From a virus (taxonomy: Duplodnaviria > Heunggongvirae > Uroviricota > Caudoviricetes), in the IMG/VR virus record IMGVR_UViG_3300049595_003752, positions 1 to 12,162 of that record: a DNA stretch of 12,162 bases; one strand, written 5' to 3'. Numbering within the stretch: the stretch's first letter is position 1; each line of letters begins with the position of its first letter. This document shows positions 771 through 6,007 of this stretch, in pieces. The notes under the pieces were generated by a model. That model saw only the letters and a program-made list of their open reading frames with translations, made no database searches and was not told the origin of the DNA. The translations under genes were made by a program, and so were the position numbers.

Positions 771-796
771 AAAAAGAAGGTTAATTAACGTTTTTG

Positions 797-1318
797 ATGA
801 ACAAAAATAAGGTTTCTCATAGAATAAATGAGGGAATTAGAAGTCCACAGATTAGAATCATAGGTGAAGGTATTGAATCAAAAGTATGTTCGGTACAAGA
901 AGCAATGAAAATTGCTGAACCATTAGATGTTGATGTGGTTGAAATCAACTCAAAGGTTAGTCCACCTGTCTGTAAATTAATTCGTTATGACAAATTTCTT
1001 TACGAAGAAAAAAGAAAAGCTAAAGAAATTGAAAAGAAAAACCGTGAACAACGTGTCGATATTAAAGAAATAGGTTTAGGACCAAATACTGACACACACG
1101 ACATTGAATTTAAAGTTAAACACGCAGTTAACTTTTTAAAAGAAGGTAATAAGGTAAAACTTGTTATGAAATTTAGTGGACGTGAGATGGTTTATAAAGA
1201 AAGAGGTGAAAAATTAATGTTGGAGTTTGTTCAAAAATTAGAAGATTATGGGGTGGCAGAAAGTCTACCCAAAATGGAAGGTAAAAGAATGTTCGTTACT
1301 TTAAAACAAAAAAAATGA
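797..1318 (+). CDS. infC: Translation initiation factor IF-3 (phage-encoded)
   Basis: Both IF3 domains are recognisable: N-terminal 'HRINEGIR..QIRII...DVVEI...PPVCKLIRYDKFLYE' and C-terminal 'KEIGLGPNTDTHDIEFKVKHAVNFLKEGNKVK..MKFSGREM..KERG...MEGKRM'. Start is ATG 797 or TTG 794; there is an in-frame TAA at 782-784. The usual thrS/rpmI/rplT neighbours are absent. Confidence 0.97.
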   Translation: MNKNKVSHRINEGIRSPQIRIIGEGIESKVCSVQEAMKIAEPLDVDVVEINSKVSPPVCKLIRYDKFLYEEKRKAKEIEKKNREQRVDIKEIGLGPNTDTHDIEFKVKHAVNFLKEGNKVKLVMKFSGREMVYKERGEKLMLEFVQKLEDYGVAESLPKMEGKRMFVTLKQKK

Positions 1319-2340: not shown

Positions 2341-2514
2341 TTATTTTTTGTGATAAGTTTCCATTAGTGACCTCATTTCTTCATTCGTAGATTTTAAAGC
2401 CATTTTTAGATACTTTATTTTTTCTTCATCATTTGAATTATTTATCTCATCTCGTAATGATTTTATTTTACCCATCAGACTTTCTAGTCTTAGATAATAC
2501 GTTTCCTTATCCAT
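2341..2514 (-). CDS. Small helical hypothetical protein (57 aa), not in the supplied ORF track
   Basis: Manual translation gives MDKETYYLRLESLMGKIKSLRDEINNSNDEEKIKYLKMALKSTNEEMRSLMETYHKK*. ATG at 2514 overlaps the end of the 489-aa ORF (alternative ATG at 2475). It fills the 2327-2489 gap on the same strand as its neighbours. Confidence 0.65.
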   Translation of the reverse strand: MDKETYYLRLESLMGKIKSLRDEINNSNDEEKIKYLKMALKSTNEEMRSLMETYHKK

Positions 2515-3959
2515 CTTGATTCAGTTGTAGGTTGTTGAGTAGATACTCTATCATCAACAATTTTCATAATACCTGTAACTCTTTTTTTATAATTACTGTA
2601 AGTTCTAGCAATCCTTTTACCGTTACTTAATTGAATACTTTTCTCAGCAACTCTGGTTACTTTAACTTGTTCACCTGAACCATAACGTCTTGTACCTGTA
2701 TAAATAATAGTATCACCAACTTGTAAATTATAAGTTGATACATTCTCTGTTCTACTAATTTTAGCCTCGTTAAACATTTTAACATAAGAATCAAGAAAAT
2801 CTTGTAATTCTTCTTGACTTAACTTAGGTAGTAAACCCCTAATTTCACTATTAATAGAACCATATCTTTCACTTAATCTTGTCATTACGGCCGATAAAGG
2901 TATTGTGTTGTTGGGTCTTCTTTCGTTAACTGCTGCATTCCAATTAACATAATTTGTATCAATGTCAGGTAATCTACCTGGTCTGAGAATCAATGTAACA
3001 TAAGGTAAACCTTGTTCTTTATAACTCATGATATCATTTGCAACACCATCATCAAGTTTAACTAAAAATTGAGTGGCTTCCTCAATAGAAGAACGGTCCC
3101 AATTTTGTAATTTTAAAAACAAAAATATTTTATTATTTTCTGCATATGTAATTAAAGAGTTTTTCTTTAACTCTTCCATGCTAACCTCATTCTTTTTGTA
3201 TAACTCACCCATGAATTCATTAAAATACTTAGAAGTTACTTCAATTAAATTTTTAGGTATTAAATTCATCATTAAAGCCGCATCAACCCTATTGTCTTCC
3301 ATTGTATACCAATCCCAATCTATTGGATCTGGTTGGTCGTACTTGATATTAACAGCGATTTTATATATATTAGCATTAGGTTTTTTTGGGTTGGTGCCTT
3401 TTTTATCTAAAAAGAATACTAAGATACCTTCTTTAGTATAACGTTTATAATAATCTGGGTTAGTTGTAGAAACACACCAATTAGAATGAGCCCCATACGA
3501 ACAAGATGCGTCATGTGTTAACGGAGAAACCACTAACCATTTATCATCTTCATAAATTTTAACTCTTGATGCATTTTTAGGTTTTTGTTCTTCAAAATAC
3601 TTACACATAACCTCAATATCATCAGGGGTTGGGTAAGAATTGATGTCTTTTGGAGCTTTTTTAATTTTAGTGTTTGATTCGGTGTCTGAAGTGTAGATAG
3701 CGTTCACATTTTTTTCACTCAGACGATTAACGTTCTCATGAAAACACTTGACGATACTAATAATGTATTCAGATGTATAATCTTTTCTTTGAGCACACAT
3801 CCAATCAAGATATTTGTTATTACCTGATGGGTCTCCTGCTGATAATTGACGAACCATATCCTCAGATACAGAACCTTCATATTTTTTAATCATATCCTCC
3901 AGACGACCTTCAGTAATGATTTGTTCTAATATATTATATTTAATGTTTTTCATACTCAT
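2490..3959 (-). CDS. Multidomain phage protein (489 aa): 'YG-x4-WC' domain (possibly PcfJ-related) plus a C-terminal SH3/KOW-like segment
   Basis: Contains DPSGNNKY...KDINSY...WLVVSPLTHDASCSYGAHSNWCVS, shared with ORF 6964..7920. The C-terminal LQVGDTIIYTG...VKVTRVAEKSIQLSNG looks like a small beta-barrel. The PcfJ relationship is recollection/inference. Confidence 0.85.
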   Translation of the reverse strand: MSMKNIKYNILEQIITEGRLEDMIKKYEGSVSEDMVRQLSAGDPSGNNKYLDWMCAQRKDYTSEYIISIVKCFHENVNRLSEKNVNAIYTSDTESNTKIKKAPKDINSYPTPDDIEVMCKYFEEQKPKNASRVKIYEDDKWLVVSPLTHDASCSYGAHSNWCVSTTNPDYYKRYTKEGILVFFLDKKGTNPKKPNANIYKIAVNIKYDQPDPIDWDWYTMEDNRVDAALMMNLIPKNLIEVTSKYFNEFMGELYKKNEVSMEELKKNSLITYAENNKIFLFLKLQNWDRSSIEEATQFLVKLDDGVANDIMSYKEQGLPYVTLILRPGRLPDIDTNYVNWNAAVNERRPNNTIPLSAVMTRLSERYGSINSEIRGLLPKLSQEELQDFLDSYVKMFNEAKISRTENVSTYNLQVGDTIIYTGTRRYGSGEQVKVTRVAEKSIQLSNGKRIARTYSNYKKRVTGIMKIVDDRVSTQQPTTESRWIRKRII

Positions 3960-3983
3960 AATTTTATATAATTATTCTAATAA

Positions 3984-3991
3984 ATAAATAT
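3984..3991 (-). promoter_or_regulatory. ATATTTAT motif (putative phage late promoter)
   Basis: ATAAATAT on the + strand at 3984-3991, i.e. ATATTTAT on the - strand, 24 nt upstream of ATG 3959. Confidence 0.5.
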
Positions 3992-4012
3992 TCGTTTTTT
4001 ACGAATAAGCCA

Positions 4013-4041
4013 TTGACACTACGATAAAAAAGACATAATAT
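4013..4041 (+). promoter_or_regulatory. Sigma70-like promoter driving the non-coding unit
   Basis: TTGACA (4013-4018), a 17-nt spacer, then TAATAT (4036-4041). It points into the structured RNA/tRNA-like region. Confidence 0.55.
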
Positions 4042-4081
4042 TAACTTGTAATCGAAACGGTGAAACCACACAAAAGTTAAG

Positions 4082-4190
4082 ATGGTAAGGTTGATGGAAG
4101 GATTTTAATAATCACTGAAACAATCAAATGACCATAAATATAGAGAAAGGGTTTCCTCAATTACAGGAAAGTGGCCCTACAGACCACTAC
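4082..4190 (+). ncRNA. Candidate structured RNA leader upstream of the tRNA-like elements
   Basis: Nested stems ATGGT/ACCAT (4082-86/4131-35), TTGAT/ATCAA (4091-95/4123-27) and GATT/AATC (4101-04/4110-13), plus hairpin TTTCCT/AGGAAA (4152-57/4165-70). No ORF here. Confidence 0.3.
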
Positions 4191-4193
4191 TAC

Positions 4194-4268
4194 GCGGAGG
4201 TAGTTTAAATATTAGAACACAGTACATTCCTGTACTGGGGTGACAGTGAAAATCTGATTCCCTCCGCT
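4194..4268 (+). tRNA. Non-canonical tRNA-like element 1 (Gly-like; 8-nt anticodon loop CAUUCCUG)
   Basis: Acceptor GCGGAGG/CCTCCGC with discriminator T4268. D arm GTTT-AAATATTA-GAAC. Anticodon stem CAGTA/TACTG around CATTCCTG. T arm GACAG-TGAAAAT-CTG(AT)TC with a 2-nt bulge. No encoded CCA. Confidence 0.75.
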
Positions 4269-4281
4269 CTAAACAAAATAC

Positions 4282-4354
4282 GTGGGGTTAGCATAAGTTA
4301 ATGTGTTTAACATTCCTGTTAAAAGATGTGGTGTCGAACCCTCATCCCACTCCA
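4282..4354 (+). tRNA. Non-canonical tRNA-like element 2 (Gly-like; 8-nt anticodon loop CAUUCCUG; encoded CCA)
   Basis: Acceptor GTGGGGT/ATCCCAC, discriminator T4351 and CCA 4352-4354. D arm GCAT-AAGTTA-ATGT. Anticodon stem TTTAA/TTAAA around CATTCCTG. Imperfect T arm containing GTCGAAC. Confidence 0.75.
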
Positions 4355-4356
4355 AT

Positions 4357-4495
4357 GGTGTTAGACACCCACCAACGTGACTATCAGGCCGATGGTCACC
4401 ATAACAAAAATCCTCTGTCACCGAGTAGTGTTGACCGTTGACTTACGTACAGTCCTTTTTTACGGGTTTTTTACGATTAAAAAAATTCATCGGCC
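4357..4495 (+). ncRNA. Candidate structured RNA downstream of the tRNA-like pair
   Basis: Hairpins GGTGT-TAG-ACACC (4357-69), GTGACTATC-AGGCC-GATGGTCAC (4377-99) and GACT-TACGTAC-AGTC (4440-54). Long-range helix GGCCGATG (4387-94) / CATCGGCC (4488-95). GC content appears higher than in the flanks. Confidence 0.4.
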
Positions 4496-4509
4496 AACAG
4501 CTGTTAGAG

Positions 4510-4556
4510 ACCTGACCTTTAGTTTGATTTATCACTCTCTTGGTCAGGTTTTTTTT
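4510..4556 (+). terminator. Intrinsic terminator ending the non-coding unit
   Basis: Stem ACCTGACC (4510-17) / GGTCAGGT (4542-49) with a long, partly paired loop, followed by a T-run to 4556. Confidence 0.65.
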
Positions 4557-4591
4557 AAAATTCAAAAGGATTTTGGAGAAAATGGGTAAGA

Positions 4592-6007
4592 CTAAAAAAA
4601 TCTAAATGAAGACTCTTCTGCCCAGTATTTACCATTATTTTCTGTTTGAGAAAAATTATAAAGTTCTTGTTCCGATAATTCAGGACCTATATTCCATCTA
4701 CCATTTTGACGTACATTGATTGTACGTTTAATCCATTTTGTAATTTCGATGTAAGAAGTTTTTTTACCAAAATATTCTAAAGTTTCAGGATAATAATCAT
4801 TATCTTCTAAAAAATAGGCAATTTTATTGAATCTTTTATCCCCAACTTCAACAGATGGATTAAACATTATATATCTAACATCTTCCAATCTAACAGGTTT
4901 TCTTGGGTTATCTCTTATTAATTGAAGGTGAAAAGGTTCTGTTACCAAATTTTCAGCCCAACCAAAATCGTCTTCAGACTCAGTTAAGTGATTATAATAA
5001 CCATTGTTACCCATTGGACGCCAATATCTTTCATCAACCAAATTTAAAGCATCATCATATTTTACATAATTGTAATAACCATCACCGTCATCATAATGAC
5101 AACGTGGGTTTGTTGGGTTGTAGTCCTTGGGGTTGTATGATATACCTTTACGGTCACAGTTTTTATACTCTATCATCAAACCACCATTCTCTTCATAGAT
5201 ATCGGTAACAAAAAGTAGATAACGAACATCTTCTGGTTTATGATTCATTGGATTTTGATCCCCACCAAAATTTGAATCCACAATATAAAAAACATCACCA
5301 AGTTTAATTGGTTGTTCTTTAACAATATCGGTTGCCCAACCAAATTCATCTTCAGACTCATTCATCTGTGGATTACAAAAATCTTTTTCAACAAAATCTT
5401 GTTTTCTAAAATAAACTTTAGGGTAATGATCATTAAATTTAACTATATAACAATCAATATTATTGAATACTTTTTCATCAATAATTTCGTAACAATCACT
5501 CCAACCACCTACTTTGGAAGTAAACATACCCTCATCTTGTTGGTGATAATAATTTTCAATATAAAATGGTTTACCATCTACACGGACTTTTAACCCAATT
5601 TCATTTTGGGTAGGTAGCCAATCAAATTCTTCTTCTGATTCTGTTAAACTATCAAAGAAGTTTATATTCTTTTGTAACAAACTCCAATAACCCATTTTTA
5701 CCAACTCACCAATCCAACCAGTATCAACATAATGACCTTCACCATCATGGTTTTCTTCTCCAACGTCTTCATATGCCCAAGTCTTACCGTTATTTAAAGA
5801 TACTTTATATTTTAATGAATAACCTTCTGATTCATATTGTTTAGTACCCCACATTGTTTGGACAGATTTAATACCAGGTTTACCATCCTGAATAATATTG
5901 GTAACCATAATCAAATTATTTGTTTCGGTAATAAAAAAAATGTCACCAACCTCAATTTTTTGGGGTTCAACGCTTTCCAATAATATTTTCCTAATAATAC
6001 TTCTCAC
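4592..6007 (-). CDS. Modular putative virion protein/polyprotein (471 aa) with repeated ESE(D/E)(D/E)F(G/D)W linkers
   Basis: GTG start with N-terminus MRSIIRKILLES. Three internal linkers (LTESEEEFDW, MNESEDEFGW, LTESEDDFGW) divide it into four modules. Modules 1 and 3 resemble each other (I.(V/L)GD.F.I ... VT.I ... LV...YW). Confidence 0.85.
   Translation of the reverse strand: MRSIIRKILLESVEPQKIEVGDIFFITETNNLIMVTNIIQDGKPGIKSVQTMWGTKQYESEGYSLKYKVSLNNGKTWAYEDVGEENHDGEGHYVDTGWIGELVKMGYWSLLQKNINFFDSLTESEEEFDWLPTQNEIGLKVRVDGKPFYIENYYHQQDEGMFTSKVGGWSDCYEIIDEKVFNNIDCYIVKFNDHYPKVYFRKQDFVEKDFCNPQMNESEDEFGWATDIVKEQPIKLGDVFYIVDSNFGGDQNPMNHKPEDVRYLLFVTDIYEENGGLMIEYKNCDRKGISYNPKDYNPTNPRCHYDDGDGYYNYVKYDDALNLVDERYWRPMGNNGYYNHLTESEDDFGWAENLVTEPFHLQLIRDNPRKPVRLEDVRYIMFNPSVEVGDKRFNKIAYFLEDNDYYPETLEYFGKKTSYIEITKWIKRTINVRQNGRWNIGPELSEQELYNFSQTENNGKYWAEESSFRFF
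4958..5647 (-). repeat. Three dispersed ~30-bp coding repeats (4958-4987, 5336-5365, 5618-5647)
   Basis: + strand copies agcccaaccaaaatcgtcttcagactcagt and tgcccaaccaaattcatcttcagactcatt are nearly identical. The third copy (ccaatcaaattcttcttctgattctgttaa) is more diverged. Confidence 0.85.

Follow-up and report, generated by a model that had tools for sequence, protein, structure and literature searches.

What is the purpose of two neighboring RNAs that share one oddly built anticodon loop on otherwise dissimilar cloverleaves of glycine tRNA type? The question is raised by the first 12,162 nt (the window) of IMG/VR virus record IMGVR_UViG_3300049595_003752, a single contig of 105,103 bp with 30.5% GC, in which two such elements, E1 and E2, lie in tandem. 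Comparison with relatives from lakes and oceans leads us to conclude that E1 and E2 are very probably functional, selected offshoots of a T4-type glycine transfer RNA (tRNA), tRNA-Gly(UCC). The two elements are as follows.

4194-4268, plus strand: E1, a tRNA-Gly(UCC)-derived cloverleaf (family covariance model 64.2 bits; E 1e-13, approximate because the calibration was shortened).
4282-4351, with the CCA extending to 4354, plus strand: E2, a second tRNA-Gly(UCC)-derived cloverleaf (family covariance model 72.5 bits; E 8e-16, approximate for the same reason).

Direct reading confirmed what the initial annotation of the window had described: two cloverleaves separated by 13 nt, unlike in their acceptor, D, anticodon-stem and T sequences and alike in the loop (CAUUCCUG in RNA letters in both), each with a U discriminator and each lacking a D-loop GG and a TTC T-loop. 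In E1, the acceptor stem GCGGAGG/CCTCCGC is followed by U8-A9 and a D arm of GTTT/GAAC. The anticodon stem CAGTA/TACTG encloses the loop CATTCCTG at 4225-4232, read as C-A-U-UCC-U-G. The discriminator T4268 (U in the RNA) precedes CTA (CUA), and E1 thus has no encoded CCA. E2 consists of an acceptor stem GTGGGGT/ATCCCAC (with one G-U pair), a D arm GCAT/ATGT, and an anticodon stem TTTAA/TTAAA that carries the same loop at 4311-4318; its discriminator is T4351, and CCA is encoded at 4352-4354. U8, A14, and A21 are present in both elements, and the 10-mer around the loop, ACATTCCTGT, occurs nowhere else in the contig.

The annotation had expected standard tRNA finders to give this pair a low score or an undetermined isotype. 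Default ARAGORN and Rfam made no call in the window or the whole contig, which CheckV estimates to be ~33% complete, so that contig-wide scans cover about one third of the genome. The Rfam tRNA model (RF00005; gathering threshold 29 bits) had no match in the window or genome even at E≤1 to 10, and Rfam searched at E≤10 gave no match in positions 3950-4600. ARAGORN produced a cloverleaf for E2 only under relaxed or mitochondrial settings, with the type given as '?(Glu|Gly)'. The default searches are too strict for this family, and their silence is therefore not evidence against a tRNA origin. A blastn search of cultured phages with the whole intergenic region returned no match.

That the loop is kept while the stems covary had been taken in the annotation as a sign of selection rather than decay, and a covariation check on metagenome relatives had been proposed. 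We performed this check on syntenic loci fetched from IMG/VR and from JGI metagenomes by means of the protein adjoining the RNA locus; a search for related loci with the other flanking protein (4592-6007) found nothing. Using nhmmer, the RNA locus was detected upstream of the orthologue in ~17 loci and elsewhere in four more distant, partly marine loci, and it was still recognizable where the adjoining protein is only 40 to 50% identical. The (C)ATTCCT(G) hairpin loop was found on at least nine different stem sequences. In a MAFFT alignment of 28 distinct homologues, which was not fitted to structure, the cloverleaf pairing held in 92.2% of cells, compared with 45 to 58% when partners were slid. 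Nineteen of the 22 pairs vary on both sides, and none of 500 shuffles matched the observed covariation score. The fraction of paired cells was 99.5% in the acceptor stem, 99.1% in the D stem, 93.6% in the anticodon stem, and 75.4% in the T stem. The anticodon stem of E1, CAGTA/TACTG, reads CAACA/TGTTG in relative L001. G-U pairs are frequent (pair 6:67 in 20 of 28 homologues, pair 10:25 in 16), which marks the plus strand as the RNA strand. A covariance model of the family, derived from these homologues, identified exactly two copies on the contig, E1 and E2, both on the plus strand only. Homologues in L007, L032, L033, and L034 exceed the Rfam tRNA threshold, with 39 to 52 bits, and their Infernal alignment places an inserted A between positions 32 and 33. 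Across the 28 to 29 sequences, U8, G10, A14, A21, C35/C36, G1:C72, and U73 are invariant. The pairing, the two-sided variation, and the invariant identity marks together uphold selection over decay.

The anticodon loop was compared across 29 distinct family members. The annotation had regarded an expanded 8-nt loop as the conserved feature; that part of the description has to be given up, because loop size is not kept (8 nt in 19 members, 7 nt in 8, and 9 nt in 2), with the variation in length confined to the 5′ side of UCC. The second loop base is A in 26 members, G in 3, and U in none. Positions 32 and 38, which open and close the loop, are C-G in 21, U-A in 7, and U/U in 1, and this pair covaries. 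UCC is found in 27 members and ACC in 2, U34 thus being kept in 27, and every loop contains CC, followed by U in freshwater members and by A in most of the remaining ones. A D-loop GG is absent from all 29. Ordinary 7-nt loops in homologues had been named in the annotation as grounds for abandoning its proposal, and the 7-nt loops of the family are not ordinary since they carry A33 or G33. The conserved trait is hence loss of U33, with zero to two extra bases, in a UCC loop able to close one further pair. For the members with 9-nt loops, we also considered a 7-nt register with U33. It works for L001 (in the mitochondrial mode of ARAGORN) and fails in L010, where a compensatory change supports, and so upholds, the 9-nt register. 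The two copies of a genome tend to have the same loop on differing bodies (both carry CAUUCCUG here, and both CAUCCUG in L021), which indicates that the loop is the part being tuned.

Kinship to the glycine tRNAs of cultured phages emerged from a marine member of the family, which matches the tRNA-Gly of T4-like phages and that of a Streptomyces phage (69 phage records). It is ~76% identical to the T4 tRNA-Gly over 78 nt, with the acceptor stem GCGGAUA and the T-arm in common and with G19-to-U and U33-to-A as the main differences. The family model scores the tRNA-Gly of T4 and of Streptomyces phage LukeCage at 56 to 60 bits, yet these have the loop CUUCCAA and a D-loop GG. The tRNA-Gly(UCC) of T4 and LukeCage resemble the family in scaffold, U73, UCC, and a CCA that is not always encoded. 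They differ from it in having a 7-nt loop (C-U-UCC-A-A), G18G19, and a UUCGA T-loop, whereas the family has purine 33, in some members along with extra bases, and no GG, and often lacks the T-loop UUC.

Glycine identity is retained alongside this scaffold. The identity set recognized by bacterial glycyl-tRNA synthetase (GlyRS) of E. coli or Thermus comprises U73, G1:C72, C2:G71, G3:C70, C35, and C36. The annotation had pointed to glycine identity elements, and in the family U73, G1:C72, C35, and C36 are indeed invariant, G1:C72 occurring in 28 of 28 homologues and the discriminator column being uniformly T (U73). Pair 2:71 is C-G in 23 homologues and U-A in 5; pair 3:70 is G-C in 20, A-U in 6, and G-U in 2. 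E1 has both C2:G71 and G3:C70, and E2 has U2:A71 with G3:C70. In view of the invariant marks, it is reasonable to infer that E1 and E2 may be charged by GlyRS.

The peculiarities of the pair stand out against the ordinary tRNAs of the lineage. Two IMG/VR relatives were scanned whole. In one of them, G002 (318 kb, 96% complete), ARAGORN identified 22 tRNAs in arrays at 2 to 22 kb, covering most amino acids. U33 is present in 22 of these 22 ordinary tRNAs, and the D-loop GG and TTCRA T-loop in 21. The single exception is the array tRNA-Gly(UCC) at 21340-21410 (L175 1228-1299), which has the loop CUUCCAA and neither GG nor TTCRA. In G002 the odd pair maps to 47.5 kb, at a distance of 26 kb from the arrays, and is preceded by the promoter and leader known from the window. 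Loss of the elbow is therefore specific to glycine tRNAs in this lineage, and the separate pair additionally lacks U33. The coexistence of a normal-loop tRNA-Gly(UCC) with a distant unit that has its own promoter and leader identifies the odd pair as specialized extra paralogues. The absence of ordinary tRNAs from our contig simply reflects its incompleteness. Another relative, G001, contains three matches to the tRNA model (L085 1501-1589, 1701-1803, and 2018-2163) that share the acceptor AGUCAGG. They have canonical D (GG) and T arms and anticodon regions of 33 to 68 nt, none is called by ARAGORN, and they represent a further type of tRNA-like RNA within this phage clade.

E1 and E2 are part of a plus-strand RNA unit that lies in a 630-nt gap between the minus-strand genes 2490-3959 and 4592-6007. 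The remaining features of this unit are listed below; its promoter and terminator are consensus matches backed by conservation.

4013-4041, plus strand: sigma-70-type promoter, TTGACA/17-nt spacer/TAATAT (10 of 12 consensus positions; putative function).
4048-4193, plus strand: conserved structured leader RNA of ~145 nt, ending at the base before G1 of E1.
4355-4470, plus strand: downstream conserved noncoding module of the same unit (96% identical to L001).
4509-4556, plus strand: terminator-like hairpin (ACCTGACC ... GGTCAGG) followed by eight T (direct reading; 98% identical in L001).

The same −35/−10 pair occurs in the same place in L001, L003, L004, L007, L016, L017, L021, and L024. The leader is 94% identical to that of L001, compared with 80% at the DNA level for the flanking gene. 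It is recognizable from lake to ocean phages, with one module doubled in marine loci, and 4048-4193 has no Rfam match. RNAalifold predicts 29 pairs in the leader, 8 of them with compensatory changes. A long-range stem (GTAAT...ATTAC) and three nested helices with conserved GGAA-containing internal loops can be recognized in its fold, and the CCC loop of its last hairpin could pair with an upstream GGG. Pairing of a leader CAGGAA with the anticodon loops was considered and rejected, since the complementary word, judged by eye, is not kept in L003, L004, L007, and L021. The downstream module was found in nine loci. In L016 the module is served by a separate promoter, and in L004 and L021 the cloverleaves are not followed by it; RNAalifold gives weak support for a structure in it. 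Its invariant words are GUGUUAG, a UCAGGCCG loop carried by a hairpin with a stem that changes from locus to locus, and a single-stranded AAAAAUCCUC similar to an anti-Shine–Dalgarno sequence. The hairpin at 4509-4556 was missed by a consensus terminator scan because its loop exceeds 8 nt.

The genome around this unit encodes, by Pfam matches on the contig, a T4-type major capsid protein (Gp23), portal (Gp20), prohead protease, IF-3, and thymidylate synthase. Together with homologues of the adjoining head-protein gene on contigs of 312 to 318 kb, these T4-type head genes identify the predicted source as a jumbo T4-like phage. The IF-3 gene in the window (794-1318) is full length, with matches to both Pfam domains (E 1e-19 and 5e-30), in accord with a heavy investment of this phage in the machinery of translation.

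What, then, might the pair do? Our leading reading, which we put forward tentatively, is that E1 and E2 are glycine-accepting, attack-resistant stand-ins or decoys for tRNA-Gly(UCC). They are very probably diverged tandem copies of a T4-type phage tRNA-Gly(UCC) gene whose loop was rebuilt throughout the lineage by replacement of U33 with a purine, one extra U giving the 8-nt loop here. Bases 32 and 38 of such a loop can form a Watson–Crick pair, and the elbow contacts between D-loop and T-loop are lost. The RNAs would be transcribed early from their own sigma-70-type promoter behind the structured leader and excised in the manner of tRNAs. Their CCA ends would be added or repaired, possibly by a CCA-type enzyme of the phage itself, and host GlyRS, reading U73, G1:C72, C35, and C36, would charge them with glycine. 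They would serve as a countermeasure to host enzymes that attack the anticodon loop of tRNA-Gly(UCC) on the 5′ side of the wobble base. We lean toward an uncleavable stand-in that would still read GGA and GGG as triplets; an alternative within the same reading is that the stand-in would bind and occupy the attacker.

Both the locus and its genomic surroundings are in keeping with such a countermeasure. Between the window and its nearest relative, L001, E1 is 88% identical and E2 only 59%, and the downstream modules are 96 to 98% identical. An E2 with this identity inside flanks of 94 to 98% appears to be a swapped cassette in a conserved frame, with subtype combinations that differ between phages, and we read this, together with a loop that is common to both copies of a genome but varies from genome to genome, as a sign of an arms race. 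At 25.0 to 27.3 kb of the contig (G000), an HAD phosphatase of RNA-repair type, a T4 Rnl1-family ligase, and a small P-loop kinase adjoin one another. A 510-aa class II nucleotidyltransferase (G000 95606-97135, minus strand; L093 10506-12035) is closest to CCA tRNA nucleotidyltransferase, at 193 bits under a cutoff of 290 bits and with PcnB scoring nearly as well; its C-terminus weakly matches the phosphodiesterase domain of fungal tRNA ligase (E 7e-4). This enzyme may complete or repair the 3′ ends of the phage tRNAs, several of which lack an encoded CCA. The predicted phosphatase, ligase, and kinase constitute the healing-and-sealing toolkit that T4 uses against anticodon nucleases, here with 3′-end repair in addition. 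Also at this site (G000 24037-27267; L089 7037-10267) is a 282-aa class II synthetase-like core, a stand-alone protein of Asp/Lys/Asn type that scores far under the AsnRS and EpmA cutoffs; taken together, these genes have the look of a split T4-style cassette for tRNA repair, the synthetase-like neighbor being unexplained.

Published precedents bear on several steps of this reading. Substitute phage tRNAs counter PARIS and retron nucleases (PMC11464382, PMC11555353, and PMC10264068), the identity of base 33 influences how an anticodon nuclease cleaves (PMC2275089), and natural tRNAs with G33 or A33 remain able to decode (PMC11415595). The toxin FaRel2 targets tRNA-Gly and reads its acceptor stem.

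A number of observations weigh against attack-resistant stand-ins. Our literature searches found no anticodon nuclease specific for tRNA-Gly(UCC), and to our knowledge none has been described. Decoding is disfavored by U37 in the freshwater members, by a possible C32-G38 pair that would shrink the loop to 5 to 6 nt, by an irregular T-stem (75% paired, with 51:63 mostly unpaired), and by the 9-nt loops of two members. Glycine codons on the contig are 74% GGT and just 15% GGA, and simple codon compensation, which we also considered, is a poor fit for the latter reason. For a resistant spare, the tRNA array would be a more natural place than a unit headed by a structured leader, and strict retention of purine 33 over deep divergence suggests a positive role of this base rather than mere escape.

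Other roles were weighed against the same evidence. One is that E1 and E2 are not translators but glycine-chargeable decoys that mimic tRNA-Gly(UCC), are expressed early under their own promoter, and, having an uncleavable purine-33 loop, bind and tie up a host immune nuclease or toxin directed at tRNA-Gly, which we consider unlikely; if it were true, they would be the first RNA decoy against a tRNA-targeting defense. The closest rival to the reading as attack-resistant stand-ins is that of off-ribosome glycyl carriers, which would be charged by GlyRS, kept off EF-Tu and the ribosome, and made to hand their glycine to a phage transferase. The models for it are the staphylococcal tRNA-Gly species that work with FmhB, FemA, and FemB, and the Mom protein of phage Mu, which uses Gly-tRNA-Gly in DNA modification and provides a precedent for phage use of this glycyl donor (PMC13219725). 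In favor of a carrier are the features shared with the staphylococcal nonproteogenic (NP) tRNAs (UCC, no G18G19, a T-loop without UUC, an extra stem pair, and a small loop), the presence, as in staphylococci, of a more normal tRNA-Gly beside them in the genome, a T-stem that is irregular at the EF-Tu-binding site, and an elbow lost in glycine tRNAs alone in the lineage. However, the annotation's suggestion of a nonribosomal glycyl donor found no Fem partner enzyme: the FemAB family (PF02388) has no match on the contig, in G002, or in G003 (67% complete), even though G002 is nearly whole. Acetyltransf_1 GNAT proteins are absent from the contig, Mom-like and other GNAT folds not having been searched in the complete relative, and no class II synthetase of Gly/His/Pro/Ser/Thr type is present in the relatives. 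A carrier also leaves the retention of U34 and purine 33 unexplained because GlyRS needs only C35 and C36, and the normal-loop array copy likewise lacks the elbow, so that elbow loss is no mark of nondecoding. Overall, we regard the carrier role as rather improbable.

The cloverleaves could instead be processing punctuation, handles for RNase P and RNase Z that free the leader and the downstream RNA without a job of their own. This would suit a leader that stops exactly at G1 of E1, a downstream module that begins right after the CCA of E2, and flanking RNAs that are 94 to 98% conserved when the cloverleaves are 59 to 88% conserved; T4 co-transcribes stable RNAs with its tRNAs. A handle, however, would require no more than the acceptor and T arms; conservation is instead highest in the loop core and the glycine set, and L004 and L021 have cloverleaves without the downstream module. 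The cloverleaves probably do punctuate the transcript, yet punctuation alone cannot explain the conserved loop core and identity set, and as the sole function we find it quite improbable. The annotation had further proposed natural +1 frameshift decoders, for which GGAA (UUCC) or AGGA (UCCU) would be a single glycine codon. The loops of the window do have 8 nt, laboratory suppressors with 8-nt loops (sufD, SufJ) are reported to shift frame (PMC4238358), and U37 could pair with an A preceding GGA. The proposed scan for genes split by +1 frameshifts was run on the available third of the genome and found none. In a strict scan of pairs of open reading frames (ORFs), no pair requires a +1 shift at GGA, GGAA, or AGGA; a sensitive scan of all 256 four-base words gave 0 bridging sites for AGGA (0.8 expected), no enrichment, and for GGAA four bridging sites, all ordinary gene junctions at which the next gene has its own ATG. 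The standard code gives a coding density of 94% with long ORFs, and in these GGAA occurs in frame (GGA then A) 79 times, so that efficient four-base reading would be harmful. Close homologues have 7- or 9-nt loops on the same scaffold, and a natural 8-nt-loop tRNA, the mitochondrial tRNA-Thr of yeast, is considered a triplet reader (PMC3113583). Four-base decoding is thus unsupported and, in our view, highly unlikely. Equally so are sloppy decoders or decaying duplicates, that is, redundant tRNA-Gly copies under relaxed constraint. A normal-loop tRNA-Gly(UCC) does exist in the complete relative, and the T-arms of freshwater members are degenerate; against relaxed constraint, a U at loop position 2 is missing from 29 of 29 members, changes at 32-38 are compensatory, CC and U73 are invariant, and the pair is retained from lake to ocean with its promoter and leader.

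We separately considered stop recoding at G000 87880-87882, where a TAG lies between ORFs of 931 and 625 codons in the same frame. An ATG follows 17 codons later, TAG terminates 8 of 75 long ORFs, and the arrangement looks like chance adjacency.

Literature searches found no description of this glycine tRNA family, and each known system that it resembles differs from it in part. Phage tRNAs that evade defense, such as those of T5 against PARIS and Retron-Eco7 (PMC10264068), have an altered anticodon loop. So do E1 and E2 when set against the tRNA-Gly(UCC) of T4, of LukeCage, and of the array in their own lineage, and they too are accompanied by repair enzymes. The tRNAs described there, however, have 7-nt loops with U33, and decoding by them is established or presumed, whereas E1 and E2 lack U33; the text of that study (van den Berg et al. 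2023) mentions neither U33, position 33, insertions, nor tRNA-Gly. The likeness to the staphylococcal nonproteogenic tRNA-Gly that the annotation had noted is real for the D- and T-loops (PMC7826273): NP1-3 have UCC, no G18G19, UGC or UGU for UUC in the T-loop, and an extra anticodon-stem pair. NP1-3 are nevertheless cellular, restricted to Staphylococcus, and partnered by Fem enzymes, whereas E1 and E2 are viral, without a Fem enzyme found and without U33. The staphylococcal NP tRNAs are assumed to keep a loop of normal size with U33. The sufD tRNA-Gly, SufJ, and SufB2 share with E1 and E2 an 8-nt anticodon loop on a glycine scaffold, but they are laboratory mutants with a matching four-base site, and here no such sites were found on the contig and loops range from 7 to 9 nt. 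The yeast mitochondrial tRNA-Thr(UAG) has, like E1 and E2, a naturally fixed, clade-conserved 8-nt loop (PMC3113583); unlike them, it is organellar, serves codon reassignment, and is the sole tRNA for its codons. Candida tRNA-Ser(CAG) with G33 and Streptomyces tRNA-ProX with A33 (PMC11415595) are functional with a purine 33, the base of the family, but are cellular and mistranslating, with 7-nt loops, intact elbows, and other amino acids.

Recently, tRNAs have turned out to be a main arena of conflict between phages and bacteria, contested by PrrC, PARIS, retrons, Schlafen, OLD, toxSAS, and Cas12a3. The phage answers known so far are repair enzymes and substitute tRNAs with point changes, and a glycine pair with a rebuilt loop differs from these. 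A lineage of giant T4-like phages of lakes and oceans keeps a full set of normal tRNAs and, in addition, a separately transcribed glycine pair that breaks two of the most highly conserved rules of tRNA structure, U33 and the elbow, in a regular and selected way. The whole family is missed by standard tRNA finders, which is a practical warning for the annotation of such genomes. If the pair decodes, it would define limits of natural loop rebuilding (purine 33, 8- and 9-nt loops, U37) that may be useful for tRNA engineering; if it does not, it would be a new kind of functional tRNA mimic. In either case, the pair points to an undiscovered host activity against tRNA-Gly(UCC) and provides a set of RNAs with which candidate nucleases and toxins may be challenged.

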